DNA from: Ostreococcus lucimarinus
Taxonomy: Eukaryota
Reading direction: 5' to 3' (one strand)
Assembly (NCBI GenBank): GCA_000092065.1
Contig: CP000581.1
DNA: 64,000 bases
A program made the translations under genes and the position numbers. This document shows positions 8,116 to 49,137 of the stretch, piece by piece; the first letter of the stretch is position 1; the number at the start of each line of letters is the position of its first letter. Under the pieces are notes generated by a model. That model was not told where the DNA came from, did not search any database, and was given only the letters and a program-made list of their open reading frames with translations.

Positions 8116-9501
8116 TTAGACGGACGCGAAGGCGTCGATGGCGACGCGGATGCGCAGGAGCTCGTCGTGTAAACCGTCGAAGACGTCGCGCATGGCGGCG
8201 TAACGCTCGCGACGGAGCGAGGCGAAACGAGGGAGAAGGGCGGCGGCGTCGTCGCCGCGGCGAAGCGCCTCGTACTCGTCCGCGTTGGCGGCGAGCCGGG
8301 CGTGGAGGGAGACGTAGGTGTCGTACTTGGTGTCGTACGTCGCCTTGAGGGCTTCGCATTCGTCGTGGGATTCGATGACGTCGACGGTCGGGGATGGTGT
8401 GAGGTGCCGCCAGTCGTCGTCGTCGTCGCCCGCGGCGCGAGGAGCGATTTCCCGCGTCTTCGCCGGGGGCCGACGCGCGAAGACGTGGGCGTGGGGGTCT
8501 AAATCTATGCTCGGCGATCGGTCACCTAAGTCCACGGTGATGCCGTTGCGAAGGACGCGAGGCGGTTCTTGAAGCGGTGGCGTCGGCACCGAGGTCCCGT
8601 TCGTCGCCTGCGTCGAAGTCGGCTGCGACGGCGCGCACGGCGGCGCCGCCGCCGCTTTTTCCTTCTTCGGCAGCTTGATATGTTTCGCCGCCGCCGTGAG
8701 CTGAGCGTGGGACTTTTGTGCGTCCCGTCTCTTTCCATCGACTAACTCGTACCGACCCGGAGGCCGCAGCTGCGCCACGTGCTTGATGGTCTCTCGCACC
8801 ACGCGCTGATTCGGCGGCGGTTTGCACGCCAACGCGAACCCTTTGGCCACGCAATCCCGGATCGCGTTCTCCGACAACGGACGCTCAAACAACAGCGACA
8901 TCACCGCCGCCTTAACTCGCGAGAATTCGCTTCCCGAACCGTCGAGCATCGCCGCCGCGACCACGCGCGACCACCGCTCCAAGTCTCTCCGCAACCCGTC
9001 GCTCGTCGCCGCGCTCGCGCCCTCCCTTCCCGCCACCTCATCCACCTCGACCACCTTCAGGTGTCGCTCTCGCTTCTCTCGCAGCTCCTCCTCCCCTCGC
9101 ATCTTCACCCTTCGCGCCGTTCCATCCTCCAGCGATCGCTTCGGTCGCAATTTTTCCCTCGCCGTCCCCACCGTCTCCAGCGCCCGTCCCTCGTTCGCGC
9201 TCTCGAATCGCACCTCCCCTCGCACCACCGTCGCCCGTCCCTCGTCCGCGATCGAGTGAAACACGTCCACGACGCCGTCCGCTTCGATCGTCCACGTTTT
9301 TTCGCCCCCTCCCGAGCGCGCGCCGCGCGTCGTCGCGTTCGCGCGCGTCAACGGCGATCCGCCGCCGCCGTCGTCGACGCGCGCGCGCACGCCGTCGGCG
9401 CTCGCGATCCATCGCGCGAGCTGCGCGCGCGTGCACCGCACGAGCGCGACGTACCGCTCGGCGCTCGGCGCGACGGGATCGAGCGCGAGCGCGCGCGACA
9501 T
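8116..9501 (-). CDS. ELL-like RNA polymerase II elongation factor (C-terminal occludin/ELL domain)
   Basis: The C-terminus YDTKYDTYVSLHARLAANADEYEALRR...LHDELLRIRVAIDAF lines up with the ELL occludin-homology domain (YxxxFxxEYxEYRDLHAR). A central region resembles the ELL winged-helix region. First ATG of the homologous part taken at 9499-9501; the track ORF extends to 9636. Confidence 0.5.
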   Translation of the reverse strand: MSRALALDPVAPSAERYVALVRCTRAQLARWIASADGVRARVDDGGGGSPLTRANATTRGARSGGGEKTWTIEADGVVDVFHSIADEGRATVVRGEVRFESANEGRALETVGTAREKLRPKRSLEDGTARRVKMRGEEELREKRERHLKVVEVDEVAGREGASAATSDGLRRDLERWSRVVAAAMLDGSGSEFSRVKAAVMSLLFERPLSENAIRDCVAKGFALACKPPPNQRVVRETIKHVAQLRPPGRYELVDGKRRDAQKSHAQLTAAAKHIKLPKKEKAAAAPPCAPSQPTSTQATNGTSVPTPPLQEPPRVLRNGITVDLGDRSPSIDLDPHAHVFARRPPAKTREIAPRAAGDDDDDWRHLTPSPTVDVIESHDECEALKATYDTKYDTYVSLHARLAANADEYEALRRGDDAAALLPRFASLRRERYAAMRDVFDGLHDELLRIRVAIDAFASV

Positions 9502-9778
9502 CGCGCGAAGTGTCGCGCGCGAACCGCCGCGACGCGATTGGCGCGCGGCGAAAAAGAACCCTCGGTTGGCGACGCCTCGAACGGTCGGTCGCCGCGTTGA
9601 CGATTCGTATCCCGCGCGCGCGCGACGGACGCACACGGCGTCGCGCGAGGCGGCGAGGCGACGACGGCGCGACGAGGGACGCGCGCGTCGTCGCGCGAGC
9701 GTCTCGGCGCGCGGGACGGCGAACGCAGGGACGCGCGACGGACGGCGCGACGACGCGCGACGACGCCGCGCGCGAGAG

Positions 9779-9790
9779 GATATATATAGC
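9779..9790. promoter_or_regulatory. TATA-like element (TATATATA) in the 465-bp divergent spacer between the ELL-like and channel genes
   Basis: ggatatatatagcgg lies about 180 bp upstream of the channel ATG at 9967. This is the only AT-rich octamer in an otherwise more than 75% GC spacer. Confidence 0.3.
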
Positions 9791-9966
9791 GGCGCGCGCG
9801 AACGACGACGACGAGGACGATGGTGGAACGAGCGGAGGCGCGAGCGGAGAGGGAGGGGCGACGCGGGCGTGGGAGGTTGCGGTTTCGCGCGGCGGCGGCG
9901 CGAGTGGCGCGGGAGCGGCGAGAGGCGCGGAAGGCGTTGAGGTCAGACGCGGGGCCGGGCGCGACG

Positions 9967-12900
9967 ATGGGCGGGACGGCGCTCGGGATGTTTAGGGTGG
10001 ATAATCGCGCGCGCGTCGCGGTTTTTCGAATCATGCACTCGCAAGCGATGGAATATGTTGTTTTCGTGGTGATATTGGCGCACTTCGTCACGCTCGTGCT
10101 GCTGGCGACGAGCGGGGAGTCGACGCGGGCGATATCGAGCTTGAGCGAGTTGGCGAAGTCGCCGCTTCGCGCGATCGACGCGGCAATCTTGTGCGTGTAC
10201 TCGATCGAGGCCGCGGCGCGGATTTTCAGTCTTGGATTTATAGGGCACAAGCACGCGTACATGTCGAGCGTGTACAACCAGGTCGATCTCGCCATCATCG
10301 CCGTGAGTTGGCTTTCGATGACGATGCAGTGGCACGGGAGCGATTCGCTGTTCACGCGCGTGCGCGTCGGACAATTGCGATTCTTTCGCGGGGTGCACGC
10401 GCTCAAACGGTTCAAGCTCGCGACTTCCGTGGTTTTCATCGCGGAATCGCTTCAGAAGTCCATCGTGCTTTTACGCGATGTCGCCGCCATTACTGTGATT
10501 TGCGCCGTGTTTTACGCGCTCATGGGTATGGGTATCTTCGGCGGTTCGCTTCGACGGCGATGCGTGGAGACGACTTCGGCGGAGACCGCGCGCATGTTTT
10601 ACACTGCGGTGAGCGATCCACCGTTATTTTGCGGGGACGTCGGCAATTTACCGAATCATAAAGGCTACGTGTGCCCGGGGGTGTACGATTCCAACTCTTC
10701 GTTATTTTGCAGCGATTTGGTCGGCAATCCACAGCACGGTTATCAATCGTTCGATAGCTTCGGGTCAACGCTGCTCGTGATGTTTCAAACAATCACGATT
10801 GAGGCGTGGCAGGATGTGATGTACCCAATCGTCAACGCCGAGTATAAAGCGTCGGCGGCGTACTTTGTGACACTCATCATCGTGGGGACGTACTTCATCG
10901 TCTCTGTCTTCGTCGCCGCAGTGAGCGGAGTGTTCCTCCGGCTCCGACGCGAGCACCAGATGATGCTGCGAAGTAAATCAAGAAACGGGGCATCGTCCGA
11001 TGATGAGCTCGAAAGCGAGCTCGCGATTCGAAAACTTATTCGAAGGTTAAACGGCGGCACGGGCGAAACGTTAGCCTCGATCGCGGAAGCGGCGTTGACG
11101 AGAAAGCGAATGCTGGAAGAAGGAGACAACGATCAAACTCGAGCAATACCGAGCGGTGTTGCGCGGCCAAAACGCGATCGGTTATCAGAGCGCATTAATC
11201 ATCCGTATTTTGACAAGATGGTGAGAATTTTAATCGCTGCGAACATCGCCGTCATGGCACTGTATCGATTCGATTTGGACGACACAAAGAAAGAATATCT
11301 CGTCATCGCCGAAGGTTTTTTCGTGTCTGCGTTCATGCTTGAAGTGATATTACGGGGACTTGCGGCGAAGGACATCGGTCGACGTATCGTGACGTTCAAG
11401 CCGACGAATGAGGATTTGATGCTGGTTTTCGACACGGGCGTCGTCGCAATTAGTGCAACGGTGATGTGGGGCAAAGGCATGAATTTGACTTCGCTGCGCA
11501 TCCCGCGGCTATTCAAGACTTTCGGACCTGCAAAGTCGCAAACAGGCGTGGACACCATAAATCGTGTCTTCAAGTCGCTCGGCTCCCTTCTTTCCTTGTT
11601 TTTATTCTACGTCGCAATTCTCGCCATGTACGCCGTGCTCGGTATGCAACTATTCGCGAATCGTGATGCTGGTTTGGAAGACATGCCACGTCTGCACTAT
11701 AATACGTTTCCACAAGCCATGTTGGCGTTGTTTGTCGCCAGCACGGGTGAGGGTTGGACAGATTTGATGTTTCACGGCGTGCAGATCACAAATGCGGCGA
11801 TTCCGTTTTATATTTCGTTCTTCGTGCTCGTCAACTACATCGTTCTCAACCTCGTAATCGCCGTAGTTCTCGAGAACTTGGAGTTGCGAGACGTTGAAAA
11901 GACAATTGTCCAATCCGAGGAATTGGTGAAACGAACGGTGAAGATGGCGATGCGAGATCAAAAGTTTGTAGATTTCATGGAGCGCGCTCGCGTGAAATTC
12001 AAGTTAACGCTCAGCGGACGCCGTTGGACGGTCGAACGCGCACATCGACTTTCACCGTGGCTAGAGCTTCGTTCGGAGACGGAACGGCGTATATCTAAAG
12101 CTATTGAGCGAGAGATTGCGGTGTCGCTTGTGCAAAAGGCGACGTCAGATACAAAGGTTGGTGGCGAATTTGTACTGTGCGAGTCCAAGTTCGTCCAAGT
12201 CGCGCCAAACTCAGTGGGAGACGACATGGCGCCAGCCGGCGCGGATGCCGGCGGGCTGACCGTGTGCATGAAAGTTCGTGTAGACAACGATAGCGCGCAC
12301 GCCTTAGGAAATAGTACAACGGGGAAAGCGGCATCGCGACACAATCCCATCGCTAGAGGCGGCGACGACGACGGGCGCGTGGAGATTATCTTTGAAGACG
12401 CTGTCTCCAAAGCTACTGACTTCGCGGCGTGCCCAGCTCTACCGTGGTACATATCCGACGACGCATTGTGTATATTTCCTTCGTCGGGTAAATTACGAAC
12501 AACCTTACGCAGAGTGCTTCGATCGCGATGGTACGAGCGCATAAGTTTTTCTTTCGTCGTCGTATCCGTCCTCGCGGTTTTGGCGACCAAGCCTGTGGAT
12601 CAAATAAACGAGCTTCAAAAACATGTCGATACTGCAAACTACGCCGTTTGTGGATTCTTCTTGGTTGATTTCATCATGAATATCATCGCACACGGGCTCA
12701 TACTCACGCCGGCGCCGTTCGTCGGCAGGGTTTGGAATGTATTTGACATGGCCATCTTGATCATCGACGTGATGATTGTGGCCTGTCCCCTAATACTCGG
12801 TGACGCATACACGAGGTACTGGCGCCGCGCATTTAATATGGCGGCACCCATGCGACCGATTCGAATCATGACGCGGGTGACGTCGATGCAGCGACTCGTG

Positions 12901-14688
12901 AAAACGCTTGTGGTGACGCTTCCAACGATCAGTGGGATCATCATGCTCACGGGGGGGATGTTCCTGGCGTTCGCGATCGTCGCCATTCGCGAATACGGCG
13001 GGACCTTTTACAGCTGCAACGATTTAATGGTGATGACAAAGATCGAGTGCGTCGGTACATTTGTCTCTACTGGAGGCGACATCATCGCTCGCGAGTGGAA
13101 TAGAAATCTGTTCGAGTTTGATTGGATAGGCAGTGCCATGCTCACATTGCTCGAAACGGCGTCTTTGGACGGTTGGATCGAAGTCATGTTTGCAGCGATG
13201 GATAAAACTGGCGTAGGCATGCAACCTCGATTTGAACGCAACTGGCCCGCGGCATTCTTTTTCGTCGCGTTTATATTGATTGGCTCGTTTCTCATGATTC
13301 GTACGATCATCGGTGTTTTCATTCATCAGTTTGGTTTGATATCAGGTCGCAAGCTTCTCACTGAGAGGCAAAAATTGTGGCACGACATGCACAAGGTGGC
13401 GCTTTCGCTCAAACCGATGCGAATGAAATTTCTGCCACCTCGAGGTCTTCGTAGAGTGTGTTTTCACATAGTCAACCATCGAAGCTACCGAGCGTTCGTG
13501 TTGATCGGAGTCGGCTTGAACGCGGCTTTAATGGCGACTGAGCGCTACGGCGACGGCGAAAGCGTTTTGGCTCACGTTCGTTCGATTGGTGAAATTTGCT
13601 TCGTCGGTGTGTATTTGATAGAGGTGTTGTTGCAAGTCAGCGCGGCGTACCCGAGCGTGCGCCACTACTTCTCGAATAAGTGGAATGCTTTCGAGCTCAC
13701 GCTCGCGGTCGGTTCTGCGGTGACGTTACAAAGTAAAGCTGGATCGTTGCGCGATCAAATAGGTAGGCCGTTTAGGTTCCTGCGCGTCTTTCGCATCATT
13801 CGCCATGTTCAGTCTTTGCAGATCCTGGCGAGCACACTCTTACTGGCGATTCCGAGTATATTAAGTGTCATGGGTTTGATGTTGATTTGGATGTTCATGT
13901 ACGCCGGCATCGGAACACAGATTTTCCCTAACGTAAAGTTTGGCGAAGCTTTGAACAAGGATGCGAATTTCCAAACGTTCACTAGTTCTTTCCTCTTGCT
14001 GTTTCAAGTCATCACGGGCGAAGGGTGGCGGCAATACATGTATGATCTCATGGTCACCACACCTGATTGCACGCACTCGGAGGCGTCGTCGGATTGTGGA
14101 TTTCCCGACGGTGCGGTGCTGTACTTTGTCACGTACGTCATCGCCATGGGCTACGTTTTCACCAACCTCTTCGTTGCGTCCATTTTAGACCACGTCACCT
14201 TTGGTGTCCTACGCGAGGCCGCCATCATTACCCCAAAACACCTTTACGACTTCCAACAGGTCTGGAGCAAGTACGACCCGCTGGCAACCGGTTTCATCGG
14301 TGCGCACAGACTCGGCGAGCTGTTACGAGATCTCAGCCCACCGCTCGCCGTCGAATTCCGCGGCGCGCTCCTTGAGAAATCACCCGTCTTTCGCGAGCAA
14401 GCGGAGCGTGCCGCGGCTTTATGGCGCCGCCGCATCATGTACGAATCTATATCGATTCACGTCCCTGGTCGCGGGATCCCCTTCACCCCTCTCCTAGAAT
14501 CCCTCCTCGCAACCAAGCTCGGCGCCGCCGCCCTATCGCTCGCCGAGCGACTCGCCCGTCAAAAACGTCTTCGCGACGTCGAAGCCTGGGGCGCCGCCGT
14601 CGTCGCCCAGTCCTACATTCGTGGTCACATCACTCGCAGACGCTTGCGAATCGAGCGTTCGAAGCGCATCGCCGCCTCGCGCGCGTGA
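9967..14688 (+). CDS. Four-domain voltage-gated cation channel (Cav/Nav superfamily, 24 TM). The pore-loop selectivity positions read E/E/D/E. C-terminal IQ-like motif.
   Basis: Four repeats, each with an S4 helix carrying Arg/Lys at every third position: RVRVGQLRFFRGVHALKRFK, LRIPRLFKTF, RPIRIMTRVTSMQRLVK, RPFRFLRVFRIIRHVQ. Pore loops are TIEAWQD, TGEGWTD, SLDGWIE and TGEGWRQ. C-terminal motif AAVVAQSYIRGHITRRRLRI. First ATG after the Arg-rich leader is at 9967; the track ORF begins at ATG 9820. Confidence 0.85.
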   Translation: MGGTALGMFRVDNRARVAVFRIMHSQAMEYVVFVVILAHFVTLVLLATSGESTRAISSLSELAKSPLRAIDAAILCVYSIEAAARIFSLGFIGHKHAYMSSVYNQVDLAIIAVSWLSMTMQWHGSDSLFTRVRVGQLRFFRGVHALKRFKLATSVVFIAESLQKSIVLLRDVAAITVICAVFYALMGMGIFGGSLRRRCVETTSAETARMFYTAVSDPPLFCGDVGNLPNHKGYVCPGVYDSNSSLFCSDLVGNPQHGYQSFDSFGSTLLVMFQTITIEAWQDVMYPIVNAEYKASAAYFVTLIIVGTYFIVSVFVAAVSGVFLRLRREHQMMLRSKSRNGASSDDELESELAIRKLIRRLNGGTGETLASIAEAALTRKRMLEEGDNDQTRAIPSGVARPKRDRLSERINHPYFDKMVRILIAANIAVMALYRFDLDDTKKEYLVIAEGFFVSAFMLEVILRGLAAKDIGRRIVTFKPTNEDLMLVFDTGVVAISATVMWGKGMNLTSLRIPRLFKTFGPAKSQTGVDTINRVFKSLGSLLSLFLFYVAILAMYAVLGMQLFANRDAGLEDMPRLHYNTFPQAMLALFVASTGEGWTDLMFHGVQITNAAIPFYISFFVLVNYIVLNLVIAVVLENLELRDVEKTIVQSEELVKRTVKMAMRDQKFVDFMERARVKFKLTLSGRRWTVERAHRLSPWLELRSETERRISKAIEREIAVSLVQKATSDTKVGGEFVLCESKFVQVAPNSVGDDMAPAGADAGGLTVCMKVRVDNDSAHALGNSTTGKAASRHNPIARGGDDDGRVEIIFEDAVSKATDFAACPALPWYISDDALCIFPSSGKLRTTLRRVLRSRWYERISFSFVVVSVLAVLATKPVDQINELQKHVDTANYAVCGFFLVDFIMNIIAHGLILTPAPFVGRVWNVFDMAILIIDVMIVACPLILGDAYTRYWRRAFNMAAPMRPIRIMTRVTSMQRLVKTLVVTLPTISGIIMLTGGMFLAFAIVAIREYGGTFYSCNDLMVMTKIECVGTFVSTGGDIIAREWNRNLFEFDWIGSAMLTLLETASLDGWIEVMFAAMDKTGVGMQPRFERNWPAAFFFVAFILIGSFLMIRTIIGVFIHQFGLISGRKLLTERQKLWHDMHKVALSLKPMRMKFLPPRGLRRVCFHIVNHRSYRAFVLIGVGLNAALMATERYGDGESVLAHVRSIGEICFVGVYLIEVLLQVSAAYPSVRHYFSNKWNAFELTLAVGSAVTLQSKAGSLRDQIGRPFRFLRVFRIIRHVQSLQILASTLLLAIPSILSVMGLMLIWMFMYAGIGTQIFPNVKFGEALNKDANFQTFTSSFLLLFQVITGEGWRQYMYDLMVTTPDCTHSEASSDCGFPDGAVLYFVTYVIAMGYVFTNLFVASILDHVTFGVLREAAIITPKHLYDFQQVWSKYDPLATGFIGAHRLGELLRDLSPPLAVEFRGALLEKSPVFREQAERAAALWRRRIMYESISIHVPGRGIPFTPLLESLLATKLGAAALSLAERLARQKRLRDVEAWGAAVVAQSYIRGHITRRRLRIERSKRIAASRA

Positions 14689-15133: not shown

Positions 15134-18100
15134 GCGTTGAAGTCTTTGCGGGATAAAGCGGAAGAAAATCAAGTATTAGGAGATGCACTGGAGGCAACGC
15201 GGCGCGCGTTGGCGAAGTCGGAGCGTGAGGGTGCGAAATTGAAGGAAGGGTTGAACACGGTGCTCGCAGGGGGCGACAAAGACGACAAGATGACGCTCAT
15301 CGAGTCGCTGTTTGAGAAGCTTGATGGCATGGCGACGCGGTATTCGAGCGTGATCTCTACGCCAACGATTCAGATCCCGCAGTCTCCACAAGCGGGGGAT
15401 GTGGGCGAGATGTCGGCGCTTCGGAGAGAGCTGGACGATATGTCGAACGAGTTGCAGCGAGCGTCGGCGAGTTCGGGCGACTCGGATAAATTAAGAAAGC
15501 AACTAAAAGCGGCGCAAGACGCAAAAATTGCCGCACTGGCGGACGCTGAAGCCTTTCAAACCGAACGCGACGATGCCATAGCAGAGGTTGAAAGGTTGCG
15601 ACAGGCCTTGAAGACGACAAGCGCTGGCGGCGGAGGTGAACCGTTTCTCAACAACGAACGCATGCGTGAACTCGAAGGCTTGCTTGTGGAGGCGCAAAAT
15701 GCGATTGGTTTACTCTCTGATGACAATGAATCTCTTCTTGTGAAGCTACGACGTTACGAAGAAGCCGGCTCTGGGAGTGACGGGTCGGATTCGAAGCACG
15801 TCAGAGCGGCGCAGCAAGCTGCCAGAGACGCGGCAACGGCGGCGAACGAAGTCGCGCAAGAAGCCGAGCAAGCCATCTTGGCGGCGTATTCTCGCAATGG
15901 TTCCAACGCCGAGTTGCAACAAGAGCTGGATACGCAACGCGAACTCGCAGCACGAAGGGCCGATGAGGTTGAAAAGCTCAAATCGATAATTGGCGACATC
16001 GACGCTCAGCGAGAAGGCTTGTCTCAAAAGCTTCGAGTGGCGTACGCGAGTCTGCGTGAAGTAGAAAGCAAGAAGGATAGTAGCGGTCAGTTCGAAGGTT
16101 CCACGGCGGAAAAGATTATGGCACTAGAGAACGAGTGCATGCGCCTTCAGGATGAAGCCGACGCTGCGGCCGAGGCTTTGGAAGAGGCGAGAGAACGGGC
16201 CATGCGCGAAGGCGCCGCCGCGGAAGCAGCTCGTCGTCTCGGTGCGACAGCTGAAGCGAAGGTATACAGCGCCGTGCAAGCGCGGGACGCGGCGCTCGCA
16301 CGGGTACGCACGCTCGAGGAATCCATCCAACACGCCGTCGATAAAGAAAAGCACATCGCGATGGAGACGGCGCAATATCGCCAAGAGCTCGCCGTCGTGT
16401 CAGACGATTTGATGGCGATGACAAAAGAGCAACAGGTGGTCAATGCCGAGCTGTTGCGTGCGACGAGCGAGCGCGACAACGCGTGGTCAGAACTTCGAGA
16501 GGCGAAAGCAGCGCAGCAAGCGGCCGAAGCGAACGCGAAAGCAAAGCAGAAGGAAGTGGACGACGTTGTTAACGCCTACCAAGAACTTGGCGTCGAAAAT
16601 CGTCGAGTTGTCGCGGACATGGACGACATGGAACGCGATTTGCGCCGAGCAAAGGTTGCGCTTGACTCATCAGAAGCCACCTTAGCGCAGGCGACTGAAA
16701 GGGCGAAAGCGGCTGAAGCTGAAAATAAGGCGTATGCGAGTGACTTGCAAGCGTATCAGCGTCAAGTCGATAATCTGACGCATCTACTGGAAAACTCTGT
16801 GCGTGACAAGGGAGACGACACGGGTTCGTACGAAGCGCTGACGACAAAGCTCGAAGCGTCAAAGGCGATGTTATTCGATATGGAACGCGCGAGAGAGATG
16901 TCGCGACGCGAAACCGCCGCGGCGGAAGCAAACTTGCTCGTCACTCGAAGCCGGCTCACCGATGCACAAGGAGATAATGAGACTCTCAAGCACAAGTTAA
17001 GGTTGGAGACAAATCGTGTGCGAGAGCTCGAAAGTCTCGTTTCTGCACTTCGCACCCACGAACATCAAGCGGTTGTCGAAAGTGGTGACAGTTCTCAGCG
17101 CTCGGAGCTTTTGAGGGAGCGCGTGAGCGCACTGCAGGAGCAAAATCACGGATTATCACGTCAACTCGAGGCTCTCAAGCAGGATAAGAAATCGTTTGAA
17201 ACCGAGGTCGAGCGCCTTCGCAACTTGATTGAGGATGCGGCTGCAGGTGGATCGACTACGAGCCAGTCCGGTCGCACGGTGACGAGCGCTTTGGTTCACG
17301 CTGAAGCGCAAGCAAAAGAGAGAGAGCACGAAGTCGAGAGACTCACCGCATTATTGCAGCAAGCTCAAGAGAAATGCGCAACTCTTGAAAACAGCGTTCG
17401 GGAGGCTGAATCAACTGCGAACGATGCGAAGCGAGAAGCGCTCGCGATTGCTCGCCGCGAAGCTGAAGCGCGCGCCGAACTAGGTGGTTTGCGCAGCGAA
17501 CTCAGCATCGCAAAGGACGCGCTGCGAGACGCGATGGAAGATGGTTATTCGAACAACGATTCGCAGGTGTTGCAAATGCGCGTAACGGACGCTGAGCGCC
17601 GAGCGGCGGCGGCGGAATCGGCACTCTCGAGCATGGAGCGTGCGAATCCAGTGTCCGCAGCTTCCGCTGAAGAGGTGAAGGTACTTCGCGAGGAGAATCA
17701 ACGTTTACTCCATTTGTTGTCAAAGGCGAACGATGATCTGAACTCGGCGCGAAAGATCATTGACGAGCAAGGTTACGCCGACGGCGCGACTGCTTTGCTC
17801 GTAAACGAAAGGGTACAGGCGGCAGAAGAGGCGCGCCGACGAGTCGAGCAAGATTTCCAGCGACTTGTCGAGCAAATGCAGCAAATGGAATCCGGCGCTG
17901 GTGGCGAGCTTTTAGATAGGTTGCGAGAACTCGAAGAAGTGAACACCGAGCTCGAATATGAGAACGACGCGCTTCGAGAATCGCTAGCGGGGACTGAAGA
18001 AGCGATTGCGGTGATGCAACAAGACCTCGCGAGAACCGTGGACGAGTACGCCAAGCTCGGCTCGCTTGTGGAGACAATAAGCGACGATAGCGACGCGTAG
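15134..18100 (+). CDS. Long coiled-coil protein (about 990 aa), myosin-tail/SMC-like heptad repeats throughout
   Basis: Continuous ORF rich in E/K/R/A/L/Q with no globular domain. The first in-frame ATG inside the ORF is at 15290. It may instead begin in the 14959..15030 exon. Confidence 0.5.
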   Translation, partial: ALKSLRDKAEENQVLGDALEATRRALAKSEREGAKLKEGLNTVLAGGDKDDKMTLIESLFEKLDGMATRYSSVISTPTIQIPQSPQAGDVGEMSALRRELDDMSNELQRASASSGDSDKLRKQLKAAQDAKIAALADAEAFQTERDDAIAEVERLRQALKTTSAGGGGEPFLNNERMRELEGLLVEAQNAIGLLSDDNESLLVKLRRYEEAGSGSDGSDSKHVRAAQQAARDAATAANEVAQEAEQAILAAYSRNGSNAELQQELDTQRELAARRADEVEKLKSIIGDIDAQREGLSQKLRVAYASLREVESKKDSSGQFEGSTAEKIMALENECMRLQDEADAAAEALEEARERAMREGAAAEAARRLGATAEAKVYSAVQARDAALARVRTLEESIQHAVDKEKHIAMETAQYRQELAVVSDDLMAMTKEQQVVNAELLRATSERDNAWSELREAKAAQQAAEANAKAKQKEVDDVVNAYQELGVENRRVVADMDDMERDLRRAKVALDSSEATLAQATERAKAAEAENKAYASDLQAYQRQVDNLTHLLENSVRDKGDDTGSYEALTTKLEASKAMLFDMERAREMSRRETAAAEANLLVTRSRLTDAQGDNETLKHKLRLETNRVRELESLVSALRTHEHQAVVESGDSSQRSELLRERVSALQEQNHGLSRQLEALKQDKKSFETEVERLRNLIEDAAAGGSTTSQSGRTVTSALVHAEAQAKEREHEVERLTALLQQAQEKCATLENSVREAESTANDAKREALAIARREAEARAELGGLRSELSIAKDALRDAMEDGYSNNDSQVLQMRVTDAERRAAAAESALSSMERANPVSAASAEEVKVLREENQRLLHLLSKANDDLNSARKIIDEQGYADGATALLVNERVQAAEEARRRVEQDFQRLVEQMQQMESGAGGELLDRLRELEEVNTELEYENDALRESLAGTEEAIAVMQQDLARTVDEYAKLGSLVETISDDSDA

Positions 18101-35715: not shown

Positions 35716-35956
35716 CCGCCGCGCGCGCGACGCCGCGACGCCGCGACGCCGCGGTCCGACCGTCCGACCGTCCGACCGTCCGGTCGCGCGGTCGCGCGGT
35801 CGCTCGGTCGCGCGTCGTCGACGCGTCGCCGTGTCGCGCGCGCGCGCCGACGTGCTGACGCGACGCTGACGCGGACGCGCCGCGGGCGATCCGCACGCGG
35901 GTCTCATCACATGGGCCCGAACGCGCGTTAAACGCGGGGAAATCTTCGTAAAGGAG

Positions 35957-37716
35957 TGCGGGTGACATAACAAGTTGGAGTGATCAAAGCATCGTCTAGT
36001 CCAAAGCGAGCACGGTGATATCCGAGCAATCGCGGCCGTCATCCGCGAGGACGCACTCGAATCGAGCCAACATCGTCTTCATTTTACTCCTCGTGATGCT
36101 CGCGGGCGTGAGTTTCTTGAGTCTTTCCTGGTCGCCGAGACTCGCCCCGCGTTCTTCTTTCATCTTCTCCCAGTCCTCGGCGGAACGAATTCCAACACAC
36201 AACTCTTCGGAGTTATACTTCGCGAGGCATTCTAAACGAGCTTCAATCATTATCATACCAGGCGACTTGCCTAAGCCACAGTCGCAGTGCAGCGTCGTCC
36301 AGGATCGCATGTGACGCAAGACTTCTGGGCTCCCGAAATCCCAAGTCTCGCCCGGGAGCTTGTTGACATCGGCACACCCTGAACCGTAGTCATCGTATGA
36401 CAGTGCGAACGCATGCGCTTCGCCTTTCATACTGAGTTCGTTGATGGCCTGCGCTACACGTTCTTGTTCCATCGGGTGAGGACCGTAATTCAAAGCGAGC
36501 CGCTGGATTTTCAGCGTCGTCGGCGACGCGCGCCAGAAGACTTGGCCCGAGTTGAAATTCCAAGCGTCTTGATGGTGTTGTTTAGCGTTCTCATTCTTTT
36601 GCATATATGGGTAGCGTCCACGGTACAGCGCGTTATATCCGATCCAGTCTTGTTGATAAAACACATTTGTGCGCGGATGTTCGCGGACTAAACGCCCCAA
36701 GTCTGGGACTTTAAAAAGGAGAACATCCGTGTCGAAGATGAAAAAGTCCACATTCGCGGCGAGCAATCCGAGAGTGACTTTTTGTTTGAACCAAGTCAGC
36801 TGTTTGTATTTGAGGTCGTCGGCGTGCCCGCCCGAGTGCACCAAGCCGTCGAACGCGTGCCCGTCGGCGTATTGCAAGCAGTGAAACAGCTTCTCGCTTT
36901 CGCACTTCCTCGTCGCGTCGGCGTCCAGCGTGATCAAAATGTACCGCTCAATGAAGCACGTTTGATTCACAACGCGCTGCGTCGATAATTTGGCGGTCTC
37001 ATAGTTTTCCGAATCCGCGATGGAGACAAAGAGCGTGTTCGCCGGCGCGCACGACGACGGCGTCTTCGCGCGCTGCTGCGCAAACGGGTGCAACTGTTTA
37101 TACCACGAGCAATCCCTCGGCGTGATCTTGTGTTCGGTCTCGTGTGCCCTGTCATCGTCTCCGTTCATCGCGTTCGGGTAGTCGCTCGTCATCGCCGGCA
37201 GGCACGACAAGTTGCCGCCGACGCGCTCGAAGTCGTAAAAGTCGCCGCCGAGCGTGGCGGCGTCCCCTTCCAAATCCATCGCGTCCGCCTTCGCCGAGCG
37301 CGCGCGCGCGCCGAGCGGTTGGACGGACGCATCGCGCGCGGAGTTGACGCTCGAGACGATCGCCGCCCCGACGAGGAGCGCGCACGCCGAGCCGACCGCG
37401 AGCGTCGTCTTCAGGCTCAGGCTCGAGCGTCGACTTTGGTGTTGCGCGCGATCCGTCGCGGTCAACGACGCCGGCGCGTCGACCAAGGGCGCGGACTCCT
37501 CGAGCGAGCCCGACATGGTGATCTCTTGGATATCCTTGGATCTCTTGACTTAGAGTCGACGGACGAGCGAGCGATGTGCCGAACTGTGCCGCTCGCTCGC
37601 GGAGGGTGTTCAGACGGAGTGCTCGTCGAAGCGGTTCGCGAAGCAAACAGCCGCGTCGGCGGAAACGAACGAGCGAAGTCACCGCTCAGCTCGAGACACG
37701 CCTGGATCTGACGATA
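35957..37716. repeat. Tandem segmental duplication, copy 1 (about 1760 bp). Contains glycosyltransferase gene copy 1 plus about 40 bp of 3' flank and about 200 bp of 5' flank.
   Basis: About 99% identical to 37822..39581 (period 1865 bp). The copies are separated by a unique spacer of about 105 bp (37717..37821). Confidence 0.9.
35996..37516 (-). CDS. Type-II membrane glycosyltransferase, copy 1 (N-terminal signal anchor plus a lumenal nucleotide-diphospho-sugar-transferase-like domain with a DxD motif)
   Basis: 506-aa ORF from ATG. Single TM near the N-terminus (LAVGSACALLVGAAIVSSV). DxD in FIFDTDVLLF and Cys-rich C-terminus. The family (GT77-like, Nucleotid_trans) is inferred by eye only. 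Confidence 0.6.
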   Translation of the reverse strand: MSGSLEESAPLVDAPASLTATDRAQHQSRRSSLSLKTTLAVGSACALLVGAAIVSSVNSARDASVQPLGARARSAKADAMDLEGDAATLGGDFYDFERVGGNLSCLPAMTSDYPNAMNGDDDRAHETEHKITPRDCSWYKQLHPFAQQRAKTPSSCAPANTLFVSIADSENYETAKLSTQRVVNQTCFIERYILITLDADATRKCESEKLFHCLQYADGHAFDGLVHSGGHADDLKYKQLTWFKQKVTLGLLAANVDFFIFDTDVLLFKVPDLGRLVREHPRTNVFYQQDWIGYNALYRGRYPYMQKNENAKQHHQDAWNFNSGQVFWRASPTTLKIQRLALNYGPHPMEQERVAQAINELSMKGEAHAFALSYDDYGSGCADVNKLPGETWDFGSPEVLRHMRSWTTLHCDCGLGKSPGMIMIEARLECLAKYNSEELCVGIRSAEDWEKMKEERGASLGDQERLKKLTPASITRSKMKTMLARFECVLADDGRDCSDITVLALD

Positions 37717-37821
37717 TTAAACATGGACACAGGCTTAGCCGAGGCGAGAGGCGTAGCTCGAGCGTCTAGACCTCGGCGACGATCGCTTTCGCCACCGCCG
37801 CGCTCGGAGGCGCTTTCCCGG

Positions 37822-39581
37822 TGCGGGTGACATAACAAGTTGGAGTGATCAAATCATCGTCTAGTCCAAAGCGAGCACGGTGATATCCGAGCAATCGCGG
37901 CCGTCATCCGCGAGGACGCACTCGAATCGAGCTAACATCGTCTTCATTTTACTCCTCGTGATGCTTGCAGGCGTGAGTTTCTTGAGTCTTTCCTGGTCGC
38001 CGAGACTCGCCCCGCGTTCTTCTTTCATCTTCTCCCAGTCCTCGGCGGAACGAATTCCAACACACAACTCTTCGGAGTTATACTTCGCGAGGCATTCTAA
38101 ACGAGCTTCAATCATTATCATACCAGGCGACTTGCCTAAGCCACAGTCGCAGTGCAGCGTCGTCCAGGATCGCATGTGACGCAAGACTTCTGGGCTCCCG
38201 AAATCCCAAGTCTCGCCCGGGAGCTTGTTGACATCGGCACACCCTGAACCGTAGTCATCGTATGACAGTGCGAACGCATGCGCTTCGCCTTTCATACTGA
38301 GTTCGTTGATGGCCTGCGCTACACGTTCTTGTTCCATCGGGTGAGGACCGTAATTCAAAGCGAGCCGCTGGATTTTCAGCGTCGTCGGCGACGCGCGCCA
38401 GAAGACTTGGCCCGAGTTGAAATTCCAAGCGTCTTGATGGTGTTGTTTAGCGTACTCATTCTTTTGCATATATGGGTAGCGTCCACGGTACAGCGCGTTA
38501 TATCCCACCTGGCCTTGTTGATAAAACACATTTGTGTGCGGATGTTTGCGGAGTAAAAGCCCCAAGTCTGGGACTTTAAAAAGGAGAACATCCGTGTCGA
38601 AGATGAAAAAGTCCACATTCGCGGCGAGCAAACCGAGAGTGACTTTTTGTTTGAACCAAGTCAGCTGTTTGTATTTGAGGTCGTCGGCGTGCCCGCCCGA
38701 GTGCACCAAGCCGTCGAACGCGTGCCCGTCGGCGTATTGCAAGCAGTGAAACAGCTTCTCGCTTTCGCACTTCCTCGTCGCGTCGGCGTCCAGCGTGATC
38801 AAAATGTACCGCTCAATGAAGCACTTTTGATTCACAACGCGCTGCGTCGATAATTTGGCGATGTCATAGTTTTCCGAATCCGCGATGGAGACAAAGAGCG
38901 TGTTCGCCGGCGCGCACGACGACGGCGTCTTCGCGCGCTGCTGCGCAAACGGGTGCAACTGTTTATACCACGAGCAATCCCTCGGCGTGATCTTGTGTTC
39001 GGTCTCGTGTGCCCTGTCATCGTCTCCGTTCATCGCGTTCGGGTAGTCGCTCGTCATCGCCGGCAGGCACGACAAGTTGCCGCCGACGCGCTCGAAGTCG
39101 TAAAAGTCGCCGCCGAGCGTGGCGGCGTCCCCTTCCAAATCCATCGCGTCCGCCTTCGCCGAGCGCGCGCGCGCGCCGAGCGGTTGGACGGACGCATCGC
39201 GCGCGGAGTTGACGCTCGAGACGATCGCCGCCCCGACGAGGAGCGCGCACGCCGAGCCGACCGCGAGCGTCGTCTTCAGGCTCAGGCTCGAGCGTCGACT
39301 TTGGTGTTGCGCGCGATCCGTCGCGGTCAACGACGCCGGCGCGTCGACCAAGGGCGCGGACTCCTCGAGCGAGCCTGACATGGTGATCTCTTGGATATCC
39401 TTGGATCTCTTGACTTAGGGTCGACGGACGAGCGAGCGATGTGCCGAACTGTGCCGCTCGCTCGCGGAGGGTGTTCAGACGGAGTGCTCGTCGAAGCGGT
39501 TCGCGAAGCAAACAGCTGCGTCGGCGGAAACGAACGAGCGAAGTCACCGCTCAGCTCGAGACACGCCTGGATCTGACGATA
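37822..39581. repeat. Tandem segmental duplication, copy 2
   Basis: See copy 1. Same flanks (gtgcgggtgacataacaagttggagtgatcaaa... at the 3' side; ...cgcctggatctgacgatat at the 5' side). Confidence 0.9.
37861..39381 (-). CDS. Type-II membrane glycosyltransferase, copy 2 (paralogue of 35996..37516)
   Basis: 506 aa. Differs from copy 1 at roughly 11 residues concentrated in three patches (ENYETAKL/ENYDIAKL and QTC/QKC; GRLVREHPRT...QQDWIGYN/GLLLRKHPHT...QQGQVGYN; ENAKQ/EYAKQ), plus a few synonymous changes near the 3' end. Confidence 0.6.
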   Translation of the reverse strand: MSGSLEESAPLVDAPASLTATDRAQHQSRRSSLSLKTTLAVGSACALLVGAAIVSSVNSARDASVQPLGARARSAKADAMDLEGDAATLGGDFYDFERVGGNLSCLPAMTSDYPNAMNGDDDRAHETEHKITPRDCSWYKQLHPFAQQRAKTPSSCAPANTLFVSIADSENYDIAKLSTQRVVNQKCFIERYILITLDADATRKCESEKLFHCLQYADGHAFDGLVHSGGHADDLKYKQLTWFKQKVTLGLLAANVDFFIFDTDVLLFKVPDLGLLLRKHPHTNVFYQQGQVGYNALYRGRYPYMQKNEYAKQHHQDAWNFNSGQVFWRASPTTLKIQRLALNYGPHPMEQERVAQAINELSMKGEAHAFALSYDDYGSGCADVNKLPGETWDFGSPEVLRHMRSWTTLHCDCGLGKSPGMIMIEARLECLAKYNSEELCVGIRSAEDWEKMKEERGASLGDQERLKKLTPASITRSKMKTMLARFECVLADDGRDCSDITVLALD

Positions 39582-40433: not shown

Positions 40434-43400
40434 TTACAGCTCATCTTTCACGTCTTCTGTTTTATCGCCGACGCGCATGCGTTCTTCGACTCGTTCGGTG
40501 AACGCGCGAACCTCCGCGTCCAAACCTGGCCACTCTTGAACGATGCGTCGCGCGCCTTCAAGTTTTGGCTCCTTCGTGAGCGGGTTGTTACACAAATCGA
40601 TCGTCTTCGCCGCAGATTTGGTCTCATTCCCACACCACGATTCGCACCACAGCCAGGGCTGCGGTAACGAAAAGATTGGCACGTCGTGCTGCGCGTAGTT
40701 TGGCAAGTCTTGATCGAGGTTCGCCAACGAACCCGGATCTCGCGAAAGTTGGTCGTACATAACTCTCAATCTATCGCCAGCCGCCATAGCGCGAAAACGA
40801 TCGAGATCCACGACGTACAGCGCACTAATATGGTACGGCCTACCTCGTAAGTGATCTCGCCAGAAGCCCTGTTTCCAAAATCTAAAGCCTTCCATTTCTT
40901 TGTTGTTGTCGCACATCGGCGTGTACCCGTACGGCGCACCGTGAAGATCCATGGTCCAAAGTTCGCTCATATCCGCTCGAACAATTTGATCGGCATCGAC
41001 AAAAATAACTTTGTTGAGCTCGAGTGGGAACAGTACGTCGAGGAACAGAATCTTATACGCCCAGATGATTCTTTGCTTCTCCGTTTGCTTGTTCAGCCAC
41101 GTCGGCCACTTGTAGCTCACGAGCTCATACTCAAAGTCGTACTCCTTTGCCATGTACGGTAAGAAATCTTTAAAGGACGGCGAAAGCCAGTTTTTGATGA
41201 ACCAGAATTTCACCGGATTCTTCGTCGAGCGCTTGACGGATGCCATCATAATTTTCAAGAATCGCTCGTACAGATGACCGGAGGCAACGCTAAAGATGTG
41301 AATACGGTCTGCCTCCTTCGTCCTCTTGAATACACTCGACAACCATCCACTATTGTCTGAGGTTGAAACTTCGTCGAGTACGTCAAGATCTTCCTTACCT
41401 TTCCGTCTCGCAAGAGATACGTCAAGTTGCCGCCCTCTGAAAGAGTCCACTAATACGTCGACGGTGGATTCGTCGTGCGAAAGCGTCAAGTCTCGCGCCT
41501 CCGAGTCGAGAAGATCTTTCACCTGAAGAAATGCGAATATGTCCGACGATCTACCAGCTCGAAGTGACAACTTGTGCATTCCAGGTGAGGCTGGAAGCTG
41601 AAAATAACCCAAGTTCGACATCACGATTGTGCCTGGATTCACGGCCACGCTCTTATCCTCGAGCACGAACTGTGTCCCTCTCGCCGGTTGACCCGTGTTG
41701 TGATCACTTGCGTGGCCAGTGACTAGCAGAGACTCGAGCAAGTACTCTGCGTGCACAGTCTTCTCCTTGATGTCTTTGAGAATCAGGTTATCCAAATCAT
41801 ATGCCGCCCTGTGAGTCGTCACCATCCACGCTTCTGGGAAATCTACGTGCATCGTGAGCGTCTTGTGGGTCGGAACATTGGTGATGAATGCACGAGGTGA
41901 TTCCGTCATCGACGACGGTGGCGCAACATAGCGGTAGTACGACTTCAACGGTAAATCCTGCAAATTCGTCATGGGATTAAGGACGACTCGAATGGTCACC
42001 GCTTCTGGCAATCGGTCTCGAAGTAGCGCGAGCACCGGCGCGACGCGTTGCGCCTCCTTACTCAAAGGATCGAGAATGGCCTCAATCTGAACGATAGTTC
42101 CGGAGCCAGTGACAAAACTTGTTGCTTTCGCGTCGTTAATGATTTCCTCCAAACTTTCCACCGTTCGCTTCGTGGATGCGCCGGCTTGTTTCATCGCAAC
42201 AATTGCTGCGGCGTCTGAGATGATGGTCGACAACAAAGCCGGTTCCATCTCCTCGGCGTCTGAGAGGATTTCTTCTTTCACCACGTCGAATACCATTTTA
42301 GATGTTTTTGTCATCTCGATGGCGGCGAGAACGTCCAGGTCTTCGGCATCCATTTGACATTGTCTGGCCATCAGATCCAGGACCCTTCCATTCGCAATAA
42401 CGGCGCACTTCGATGTCAAGTCGTAATGAGCCAGTAGTCGAAGACTTTGCGTCGCGACGTCGGCAAAAATCGTCTCGTCGCTATACAGTCGCTTAAAATC
42501 GACCAAATTCAGCCCCATTCGCTCCGCCGCATCCTCGGGCTTCACATCTTCTGCCAAGAGTTGCTCAACGAAATTGGCAATCTTAGCCCGTCGCGTAGGC
42601 AGATGCAACGCGGCTTGAATCGCGCGCGAGCGCGCTCCCATCGTCGCAGCTGCCGATGGATGAACTACTGTAAATCGCGAAAGCGAACCAGATTCGGACA
42701 ACACGTGCTTTGCAGCCGCCAGGATCAAAAGTGCGCCCCTATCACTGTCAGCGTTGGCTACGACGACGATGGACATACCTTTCACTTCGTCTGCATCGCC
42801 GCCTTGAGCGTACTTGAGCGAAGCGATTGACGAACGGTCGATGGGTAATCGATACACCGGTGCGACATCATCCTCATCCAATATCCAAGGAACATACTTA
42901 GAAACCGCTCCTTCTTGCATGAACTTCGCCACATTTTCGAGCAGGGCGCCGGCAAGTTTTCCCGCAACAACGAGTCTTCGAACTTTCTCCATCTCCTGGC
43001 GCAAGTGGTGCGATACCATTTGCTCCAACGATGCGCGATACGCCATACCTTGCGATTCATCGACGTACACACCGTTCAATACGAACGACTGTGTCATCAA
43101 GCCTTTCGCCTTCACGGCGGCGCGGACTTCGTCGATGTACTTGTCGATGCTCGTTGACGAACGAGATGCGAACTCTTCGAGCAACGTCACCGCATCAAAT
43201 TCGAGATCATCGGCAAATTCTGACAGTGTTTTCTCGAACGCATCCATCGCACCTTCCCAAGACGGCGGAGAATATACCGCGGGCGCGAAGTACGACGGTG
43301 GTCTTTCTTCCGTACGACTTTGCGCTACGTAAGACATGAAATTGTGCTGTGCGACAGGCCCATATTCGCGCAATAAGTAATTTGCGGCACGTGCAACGCG

Positions 43401-47817: not shown

Positions 47818-49137
47818 ATGAAAAAGCGCACGACGCCCGCCATCACGAAGGTCGTCGGTCGCCAAATTTTTGACTCTCGCGGTAACCCGACGGTTGAAGC
47901 CGATGTGTACACGCACAAGGGTATGTTCCGCGCCATGGTGCCGAGTGGTGCGTCCACGGGTATCTACGAAGCCGTGGAACTTCGCGACGGCGGCAAGGAA
48001 TACATGGGCAAGGGCGTCATGCAAGCCGTGAAGAACTTGAACGAAATCATCGCCCCGGCGCTCATCGGCAAGGACCCGCGCGACCAAAAGGCGATCGATG
48101 ATTTCATGTGCAAAGATCTCGACGGTACGGACAACAAGGGCAAGCTCGGCGCCAACGCCGTGCTCGCGGTTTCCATGGCCGTCGCCAAGGCTGGCGCCGC
48201 CGAGAAGGACGTGCCGCTCTACCAACACATCGCCGACCTCGCCGGTAACGGCAAGTTGGTGCTCCCGGTGCCGGCGTTCAACGTCATCAACGGTGGTTCC
48301 CACGCTGGTAACAAGCTCGCCATGCAAGAGTTCATGATCTTGCCGGTCGGGGCTTCCTCCTTCAAGGAGGCGATGCAAATGGGCTCCGAAGTCTACCACA
48401 ACTTGAAGTCGGTCATCAAGAAGAAGTACGGCCAAGATGCGTGCAACGTCGGTGACGAAGGTGGCTTCGCCCCGAACATTCAAGACAACAAGGAAGGTCT
48501 CGACCTCCTCGTTGAAGCGATCGAAAAGGCTGGCTACACCGGTAAGATGAAGATCGGTATGGACGTCGCCGCGTCTGAATTCTTGACCGAAGACAAGTGC
48601 TACGATCTCGACTTCAAGACCGAAGGCAACGACGGTTCCATGAAGAAGACTGGTGCCGAGATGATCGACTTGTACCAAGAGTTCATCAGCGAGTACCCGA
48701 TGATCTCCATCGAGGATCCGTTCGACCAAGACGACGCTGAAAACACCGCCGCGCTCACGGCGAAGAACAACTGCCAAATCGTCGGCGACGACTTGTTGGT
48801 GACCAACCCGAAGCGCGTGCAAGCCGCCATCGACGGCAAGTGGTGCAACGCCCTCTTGCTCAAGGTGAACCAAATCGGCACCATCTCCGAGTCCATCGAG
48901 GCCGTCGGCATGTCCAAGAAGGCTGGCTGGGGTGTCATGGCTTCCCACCGCTCCGGCGAAACCGAAGATTCCTTCATCGCCGATCTCGCCGTGGGCTTGT
49001 CCACCGGTCAAATCAAGACGGGCGCCCCGTGCCGCTCCGAGCGTTTGGCCAAGTACAACCAGCTCTTGCGCATCGAAGAAGAACTCGGTGACAAGGCTGT
49101 CTACGCCGGCGCGTCGTACAAGCACATTGCTTGGTAA
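47818..49137 (+). CDS. ENO: Enolase (2-phospho-D-glycerate hydro-lyase)
   Basis: [27 protein letters not shown], the metal/substrate blocks [14 protein letters not shown] and SHRSGETED, and a C-terminal [13 protein letters not shown]. 439 aa from ATG 47818. Confidence 0.9.

Follow-up and report, generated by a model that had tools for sequence, protein, structure and literature searches.

A calcium-type four-repeat voltage-gated channel with an E/E/D/E selectivity filter in Ostreococcus lucimarinus

Four-domain channels whose pore carries the filter residues EEDE are known both as natural and as engineered proteins. The combination is listed among the natural calcium-like filters of non-animal channels (Fux et al. 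2018, PMC6259924, citing Verret et al. 2010), and it has been engineered in Cav3.1 by exchanging the domain IV Asp for Glu (Talavera et al. 2001, 2003; PMC2217349), the product still being a Ca2+ channel, but one whose Ca/Ba selectivity is altered, which Cd2+ and H+ block more strongly and whose activation is shifted to the right. Here we describe a channel of this filter type encoded in a 64-kb stretch of Ostreococcus lucimarinus chromosome 1, analysed over its whole length and hereafter called the window, where the gene lies on the + strand and ends at position 14688. To our knowledge, no prasinophyte four-domain channel has been recorded. The comparative survey of Pozdnyakov et al. (2018, Sci Rep 8:3539, PMC5824947) contains an O. 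lucimarinus sequence named 'Ostrel2' (XP_001415426.1), for which the S4 strings GQLRFFRGVHALKRFKL, TSLRIPRLFKTFGPAK and IGRPFRFLRVFRIIRH are given in Table S2, and the motif KLLT, the docking residues T/S/S, a pre-IQ segment and the IQ motif AQSYIRGHITR in Table S3. The window channel, for which an exact protein match (P0001) and an identical contig (L001) were found, is judged from these strings to be most likely the same gene: the published strings equal the window protein, save for the domain III S4, which is garbled in the machine-read table, and no sequence difference was seen across the published S4, KLLT, pre-IQ and IQ strings. The same strings differ from those of the O. tauri channel 'Ostret3' at the expected positions. 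The channel is already known as a sequence, both the RefSeq entry and the comparative table already carrying it, and the gene is therefore not novel.

The gene is real and intact, and it encodes a calcium-type, four-repeat voltage-gated channel. The open reading frame (ORF) list gives an unbroken + strand frame of 1622 codons from ATG 9820 to the TGA at 14686-14688; an in-frame TAG at 9787 shuts this frame upstream, and 9820 is the first ATG thereafter. Pfam recognised four Ion_trans stretches (E=5e-141) together with a GPHH domain, and in the PDB search the best solved relative was Cav1.2 (E=6e-116, 392 bits), followed by Cav1.1, Cav2.x, Nav1.7 and Cav3.x, with NALCN far lower at 233 bits; when domain II alone was searched, it aligned to domain II of Cav2.2, Cav1.1 and Cav3.2. 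A frame of this length with such Pfam and PDB scores is far beyond chance. Both the single uninterrupted exon, closing with the TGA at 14688, and the complete four-domain Cav/Nav-type architecture that had been read from the sequence of this picoalga were upheld; each of the four Ion_trans repeats finds its counterpart among domains I-IV of Cav and Nav channels of solved structure. The pore is a single-polypeptide pseudo-tetramer, and its high-field-strength ring is acidic at all four filter positions, giving four negative charges, and lacks Lys. The parts of the channel are as follows.

9820-14688, + strand: coding sequence of the four-domain channel, single exon, 1622 aa plus TGA stop (14686-14688), from the ORF list, Pfam and the protein match
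10048-10938, + strand: domain I, S1-S6, aa 77-373, with S4 at 10357-10416 and four Cys in the S5-P turret
10795-10809, + strand: domain I P-loop TIEAW, filter Glu328 at 10801-10803
11209-11880, + strand: domain II, aa 464-687, with S4 at 11485-11535; the least conserved voltage-sensor module
11743-11763, + strand: domain II P-loop TGEGW, filter Glu644 at 11749-11751
12532-13332, + strand: domain III, aa 905-1171, with S4 at 12820-12876
13162-13176, + strand: domain III P-loop SLDGW, filter Asp1117 at 13168-13170
13351-13380, + strand: III-IV linker motif KLLTERQKLW, from the alignment, Pozdnyakov Table S3 and clade conservation
13486-14196, + strand: domain IV, aa 1223-1459, with S4 at 13762-13806
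14014-14034, + strand: domain IV P-loop TGEGW, filter Glu1401 at 14020-14022
14227-14352, + strand: EF-hand-like/GPHH region directly after IVS6 (Pfam GPHH 36 bits, cut-off 26.8)
14491-14643, + strand: putative calmodulin-binding region, comprising pre-IQ LLESLLATKLGAA at 14491-14529 and IQ AQSYIRGHITRRR at 14605-14643, both in Pozdnyakov Table S3

The selectivity filter was examined in an alignment of the window protein and twelve orthologues with Nematostella Cav1 (EEEE), mammalian Cav3.1 (EEDD) and fish Nav1.6 (DEKA). Each domain has one P-loop, in which the filter residue stands two positions before the conserved Trp, and Glu328, Glu644, Asp1117 and Glu1401 fall in the filter columns of Cav1, Cav3.1 and Nav1.6. 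The pore motifs TIEAW, TGEGW, SLDGW and TGEGW had originally been taken as E/E/D/E and as different from EEEE, EEDD and DEKA; the alignment agrees on both points, with Asp1117 in domain III, Glu1401 in domain IV and no Lys. The domain III Asp had also been called unusual, which does not hold, because Asp in III is the T-type state and EEDE has both been listed in nature and been engineered and recorded in Cav3.1. Directly behind the filter residues, the n+1 positions read Ala/Gly/Gly/Gly, with Gly645 in domain II where Cav1 and Cav3 have Asp (GEDW), and an outer acidic ring of D332, D648 and E1121 can be read from the sequence. The extracellular cysteines (248/271/285/297 in domain I, none in II, 1066/1077 in III and 1417/1426 in IV) form the 4-0-2-2 framework with asymmetric turrets that is described for eukaryotic channels of four times six transmembrane segments (Fux et al. 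2018, PMC6259924).

E/E/D/E was kept in 16 of the 17 clade members, including relatives at only 31-35% identity (Pycnococcus and Prasinoderma); the exception is one Bathycoccus-like lineage (P0014) with Asp in the domain II filter, that is, E/D/D/E. The closest orthologue, from O. tauri (XP_003074195.2/CEF96560.1), shares 72% identity, and further orthologues were found in Bathycoccus prasinos (42%), in Pycnococcus and Pseudoscourfieldia (33%) and in Prasinoderma coloniale (31%). In a bootstrapped neighbour-joining tree of limited taxon sampling, without NALCN or Cch1 sequences, the E/E/D/E clade was monophyletic with 100% bootstrap outside animal Cav1, Cav3.1 and Nav1.6, and its internal branching followed the species tree; Cav3.1 likewise fell apart from the algal sequences, joining animal Cav1 and an EEEE sequence unrelated to them. 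The clade signature comprises E/E/D/E, KLLT, a domain IV S4 of the form GRPFRFLRxFRxxRH and charge-poor S4s in domains II and III, all of which the window channel has. In the tables of Pozdnyakov et al. this signature is common only to Bathyp2, Ostrel2 and Ostret3 and occurs in none of 13 Micromonas sequences (PMC5824947). The whole-gene ratio of nonsynonymous to synonymous substitution (dN/dS) was 0.08-0.2, and among five Ostreococcus lineages nonsynonymous differences (pN) were below synonymous ones (pS) in every region. The channel is under purifying selection and no repeat is dead. Given an all-acidic E/E/D/E filter under such selection, the original expectation of a Ca2+-permeable or mixed cation channel remains the natural prediction. 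Longer orthologues of 1853-2014 aa, P0016 (L007 2337-8381) and P0465 (L009 2001-7562), were also found on metagenome contigs and in GCA_977009765.1, at about 61% GC; they have the same E/E/D/E, KLLT or KLIT, and RRRRR. Because they are sister to Ostreococcus plus Bathycoccus, their lineage may be a Mamiellaceae-type alga.

The voltage sensors are far less uniform than the pore. According to the alignment, the channel does not have four regular sensors; it has one complete and three reduced S4 ladders, so that the regular Arg/Lys first ascribed to all four S4 segments applies only to domain IV, which is canonical, and charges have been lost in the other three. In the domain IV S4 every third residue is Arg, five in all (R1316, R1319, R1322, R1325 and R1328), and these do not vary across the clade. 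The domain I S4 reads G184/R187/R190/H193/K196, that is, G-R-R-H-K against K-R-R-R-R at the equivalent positions of Cav1, and R187 and R190 are invariant even in comparison with animal channels. In domain II (R560/R563/K566/G569/K572, with Pro562 and Gly569-Pro570), two conserved Arg are followed by a non-conserved Lys and then by a variable Gly/Pro stretch. In domain III (R1003/N1006/A1009/R1012/R1015/R1019, or R-N-A-R-R-R), the R2 and R3 positions are neutral. Set against the Arg/Lys-poor S4s of NALCN and Cch1, domains II and III are depleted, IV is full and I is intermediate, and the acidic counter-charges in S2/S3 are present in all four sensors. The domain II sensor is 55% identical among the five Ostreococcus lineages, no better than the cytoplasmic linkers, compared with 75-85% for the pore modules. 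In the Bathycoccus orthologues (P0012, P0013, P0014 and P0015), an insertion of about 25 residues, rich in Ser, Thr and Lys, stands right after the domain II S4 (RLFD...).

The III-IV linker GRKLLTERQKLW aligns with the inactivation-gate region DIFMTEEQKKYY of Nav1.6 and is the positional homologue of IFMT-EEQKK; its KLLT region is conserved across the clade. KLLT is tabulated as the inactivation-gate motif of Ostrel2, with T/S/S as its docking residues (Pozdnyakov Table S3, PMC5824947). Nav-type fast inactivation would be possible with such a linker, but its sequence makes this doubtful, because KLLT starts with Lys and the docking Asn, otherwise widely conserved, is Ser. In the aligned I-II linker no AID, that is, no GY..WI-type motif, was found, and the AID is confined to the high-voltage-activated (HVA) clade (Pozdnyakov et al., PMC5824947). 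Behind IVS6, an EF-hand-like/GPHH region, a pre-IQ segment and an IQ motif follow one another in the order of a putative calmodulin module. The IQ-like tail that had been predicted is borne out by position, since VAQSYIRGHITRR (core AQSYIRGHITR) aligns with the IQ of Nav1.6, with a Pfam score below threshold; it also aligns with the IQxxxRGxxxR of Bathycoccus, Pycnococcus and Prasinoderma.

Compared with the described families, the channel combines features of several. Its best-scoring solved relatives are Cav1 and Cav2, with which it shares a filter Glu in all domains but III and the 4-0-2-2 cysteines; it also resembles them in a putative calmodulin tail of EF-hand-like/GPHH region, pre-IQ and IQ, of which GPHH passes its Pfam cut-off while the IQ, at the homologous position, falls short of its own. 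It differs from them in the Asp of domain III, the missing domain II n+1 Asp, the missing AID, fewer S4 charges in domains I-III, the Nav-like III-IV linker and its separate clade in the neighbour-joining tree. With Cav3 it shares the Asp filter residue of domain III (ASLDGW, against ASKDGW in Cav3.1), and with the engineered Cav3.1 EEDE all four filter residues. However, natural Cav3 has Asp in IV, four Arg-rich S4s and no aligned IQ motif, and by its place in the neighbour-joining tree of limited sampling the algal channel is not a Cav3 orthologue. Nav1 is similar in the III-IV linker, homologous to IFMT-EEQKK, in the aligned IQ and in the fully charged domain IV S4, but the algal filter lacks Lys (Asp1117 aligns to the Lys of Nav1.6), the gate is KLLT rather than three hydrophobic residues plus Thr, and the docking residues are T/S/S rather than A/F/N. 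The O. tauri channel 'Ostret3' (UniRef A0A090LXD9) has the same synteny, E/E/D/E, KLLT, S4 pattern and IQ as the O. lucimarinus channel, and differs in its gene model, which opens only at the counterpart of Met50 and therefore lacks the N-terminal motif that the clade conserves. Chlamydomonas CAV2 (BAH15384.1, 'Chlamr2') is likewise a green-algal four-domain channel with an IQ-like motif, but it is flagellar and belongs to a separate lineage, in which the S4s of all four domains are canonical, the gate reads VFVT and the IQ is not the same. Like NALCN and Cch1, the algal channel has some charge-poor S4s, and UniRef automatically names the O. tauri orthologue 'Calcium-channel protein CCH1'; it differs from both in a filter without Lys (EEKE/EKEE in NALCN) and an intact domain IV sensor, and NALCN scored only 233 bits against 392 bits for Cav1.2.

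Combined with the above analysis, we consider it reasonably probable that this protein is a Ca2+-permeable, depolarisation-gated, calmodulin-regulated entry channel. It belongs to a green-algal clade distinct from animal Cav1/2, Cav3 and Nav. The ring of E328, E644, D1117 and E1401 would bind and pass Ca2+ preferentially, as do the EEEE and EEDD rings of Cav channels and the engineered EEDE ring of Cav3.1, possibly with a weaker Ca2+ selectivity than in Cav because the domain II n+1 Asp is missing. Depolarisation would be sensed chiefly by the domain IV S4 and partly by that of domain I; domains II and III, having lost charges, probably contribute less. The EF-hand-like, pre-IQ and IQ tail could let Ca2+/calmodulin feed back on gating, and without an AID no Cav-beta subunit would be expected. 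In a non-flagellate cell of about 1 um, the channel could let Ca2+ in and carry electrical signals at the plasma membrane, for instance when the cell responds to stress or to its environment, rather than control flagella. By our own estimate for a 1-um sphere (~31 fF, 0.5 fL), a 1-pA current lasting 1 ms would move the membrane potential by ~30 mV and add ~10 uM total Ca2+; with so large an effect per channel, one or a few channels could signal to the whole cell.

Several observations weigh against this proposal. The S4s of domains I-III are charge-depleted, and by the criteria of Pozdnyakov et al. charge-poor S4s are typical of voltage-insensitive channels (PMC5824947); at 55% identity the domain II voltage sensor changes at the pace of the linkers, and Bathycoccus carries the insertion of about 25 aa behind the domain II S4. 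In the filter, the domain II n+1 residue is Gly and not the Asp of Cav1/2/3, which makes Ca2+ selectivity in high-Na+ seawater uncertain (background in PMC5824947). Nav-type inactivation is doubtful, as the gate KLLT begins with Lys and the docking residues are T/S/S and not A/x/N, and such gate and docking substitutions argue against fast inactivation according to Pozdnyakov et al. (PMC5824947). In Pfam the IQ motif reached 18 bits (E=0.0023), short of the required 20.3, and no functional data on any Ostreococcus four-domain channel, electrophysiology included, were found in the searched literature.

The charge-poor sensors could be explained by a leak or 'sensor' channel resembling NALCN or fungal Cch1, weakly or not voltage-dependent, that would set the resting potential or carry a slow Ca2+ influx rather than support fast excitability. 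The S4s of domains II and III, poor in Arg/Lys or interrupted, are of the kind associated with NALCN, Cch and Nax (Pozdnyakov et al., PMC5824947), the domain II sensor is the least constrained module, and the automatic CCH1 name of the O. tauri orthologue points the same way. On the other hand, the filter has no Lys and is neither EEKE nor EKEE, the domain IV S4 retains five Arg, domain I keeps R2, R3 and K5, and the counter-charges are intact; solved NALCN scored 233 bits against 392 for Cav1.2, and published trees put the protist clades outside NALCN/Cch, two groups that our own tree did not contain. We regard this explanation as unlikely. The filter surroundings could instead point to a channel that carries mainly Na+, or is a non-selective cation channel, in seawater, acting by depolarisation with Ca2+ entry as a minor part. 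No domain has an acidic n+1 residue (A/G/G/G), unlike domain II of Cav with its Asp, the III-IV linker is Nav-like, and Na+ as well as Ca2+ passes through related single-domain channels of algae (PMC6509283). However, the four acidic filter residues with the outer ring D332, D648 and E1121 resemble Cav and not Nav1, Cav3.1 EEDE remains a Ca2+ channel (PMC2217349), and EEDE is counted as calcium-like by Fux et al. (PMC6259924). A mainly Na+-carrying or non-selective channel thus seems improbable to about the same degree as a leak channel.

Flagellar signalling, one of the roles first suggested for the channel, would make it a counterpart of Chlamydomonas CAV2. Four-domain Cav/Nav channels do correlate with flagella across eukaryotes (PMC4685582), and the Pycnococcus orthologue occurs also in the flagellate relative Pseudoscourfieldia. 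However, neither Ostreococcus nor Bathycoccus has flagella; Brunet and Arendt (2016, PMC4685582) name Ostreococcus as a case in which this correlation fails, and it is non-motile (Wan and Jekely 2021, PMC7935092). CAV2 moreover belongs to a different lineage, with canonical S4s, VFVT and another IQ, and among the 13 Micromonas channels in the tables of Pozdnyakov et al. not one has the S4 signature of the present clade. The suggested flagellar role could not be maintained, and in a host without flagella a flagellar channel is effectively excluded. Still less credible is a non-functional relic decaying after flagellar loss, for which the charge loss in three S4 segments and the recent flagellar loss suggested for Ostreococcus by Brunet and Arendt (PMC4685582) could be cited, given the intact 1622-codon frame, pN well below pS in every region, and a filter and domain IV S4 that are invariant across lineages with saturated synonymous sites; a pseudogene is effectively excluded by the selection analysis and the intact frame. 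The degenerate S4 pattern is common to Bathycoccus, Pycnococcus and Prasinoderma, so the S4 degeneration is ancient and not a recent decay. An organellar location, considered for the Arg/Ala-rich N-terminus, found no support, with no test dedicated to it; the segment is also acidic, and the deep relatives have kept it as a cytoplasmic motif.

The coding start was revised. The channel had been given a start at 9967 and a length of about 1570 aa, but this position is Met50 of the 1622-aa frame that opens at ATG 9820.

9967-9969, + strand: Met50, an alternative initiation site, corresponding to the first Met of the O. tauri RefSeq model

From sequence conservation, the coding start is most likely 9820 rather than 9967, though the matter is not fully settled. 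The 49 codons before Met50 encode GRLRFRAA...RSDAGPGA, whose general form GRLRFRAA...RSxxGPGA is preserved at the protein level throughout the Ostreococcus lineages and can still be made out in Bathycoccus, Pycnococcus and Prasinoderma. Over codons 17-49, pN was below pS in 10 of 10 pairs; in the N-terminal stretch the changes at the three codon positions numbered 91, 86 and 138, an excess at the third position, and synonymous swaps of Arg, Leu and Phe codons occur. Because codons 17-49 evolve as coding sequence and the Met50 position is Leu in six Ostreococcus lineages of the alignment, Met50 is disfavoured as the sole start. The O. tauri RefSeq model XP_003074195.2 (1600 aa), which begins at the Met50 equivalent, counts against a start at 9820. 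At the O. tauri-type locus (L002 3001-3171, corresponding to window 9820-9966), about 57 coding-like upstream codons lie outside XP_003074195.2. To judge from these codons, the O. tauri model is probably truncated, lacking ~57 conserved N-terminal residues, and a correction of its annotation would be a practical by-product of this analysis.

Upstream of the channel, an intergenic region of ~320 bp and ~75% GC (9501-9820) separates it from a divergent neighbour whose ATG lies at 9501 on the - strand.

9781-9788, + strand: TATA-like TATATATA, 32-39 nt before ATG 9820, a candidate promoter element by sequence alone

A TATA-like element had been noticed about 180 bp upstream of 9967. It is there, and TATATATA occurs as a single copy in the window (chance expectation 0.00), but it is not conserved at three of the four orthologous loci examined, being absent from L002, L004 and L006; L005 has unrelated TATAAA matches. 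As a conserved promoter feature the element is ruled out by this comparison. If it were a working TATA box, its distance of 32-39 nt from the ATG would imply an extremely short 5' leader. At its 3' end the same AT-rich run shares bases with the in-frame TAG at 9787 that shuts the channel frame. A sigma-70 and terminator scan found nothing, such a scan not being applicable to a eukaryote.

The gene order ABC/CAF16, 461-aa protein, channel and coiled-coil protein (~980 aa) is conserved in five Ostreococcus lineages. The divergent 461-aa neighbour gave only a weak, sub-threshold Occludin_ELL match. The coiled-coil neighbour at 15137-18100 (+ strand), of about 940-990 aa, is syntenic in all Ostreococcus lineages examined and gave only faint matches to CCDC39, CCDC89 and CENP-F, which probably reflect generic coiled-coil similarity in a host without cilia. 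The channel coding region (window 10001-14000) has a GC content of 54%, and 65% at third codon positions, compared with 60% for the window and up to 70% in the flanks; such a dip is in keeping with the many Phe, Ile, Leu and Met residues of a membrane protein, and it recurs in the UGGT gene at 40434-45071. On the - strand, long antisense ORFs of 150-360 aa lie across the channel coding sequence and the region upstream of it (9348-10439, 9943-10398 and 11958-12590); their translations are rich in Arg, Ala and Ser and of low complexity, and look like by-products of high GC rather than genes.

Elsewhere in the window, 35800-39565 (- strand) is a tandem duplication of a ~1.75-kb unit, the aligned units being ~97% identical overall. 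The duplicated genes, at 35996-37516 and 37861-39381, encode 506 aa each with a Nucleotid_trans (nucleotide-diphospho-sugar transferase) domain; besides the ORFs, the match takes in ~185 bp on their upstream and ~40 bp on their downstream side, beyond which identity drops. The copy at 35996-37516 (protein-coding part 35999-37516) is an exact match to XP_001415782.1 of O. lucimarinus CCE9901, and further proteins of the window belong to the 90% clusters of XP_001415432.1, XP_001415777.1 and XP_001415778.1, all from the 1.15-Mb chromosome. An enolase gene lies at 47818-49137 (+ strand, 439 aa), and in its 90% cluster several metagenomic proteins reach 612-614 aa, pointing to a gene model that is extended or fused among related strains.

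As a sequence the channel adds little to what is known; its interest lies in its physiology. One bolder, rather improbable proposal is that the clade marked by E/E/D/E and KLLT represents an ancient, Viridiplantae-wide subfamily, from Prasinoderma to the Mamiellales, that has been kept preferentially in coccoid, non-flagellate picoalgae as a 'one-and-a-half-sensor' Ca2+ channel. If true, a Cav-type pore would be coupled to a Nav-type III-IV linker with only the domain IV sensor still fully charged, single openings in a cell of ~1 um would be all-or-none Ca2+ and voltage signals of the whole cell, and the retention of a Cav/Nav-type channel in an alga without flagella would be explained. As O. 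tauri is genetically tractable and the gene is intronless, the channel could be a convenient test case for three questions: which ion is selected in seawater by an EEDE filter that lacks the n+1 Asp of domain II, how gating works with only one S4 fully charged and the other three depleted, and what role electrical and Ca2+ signalling may play in the smallest free-living eukaryote.

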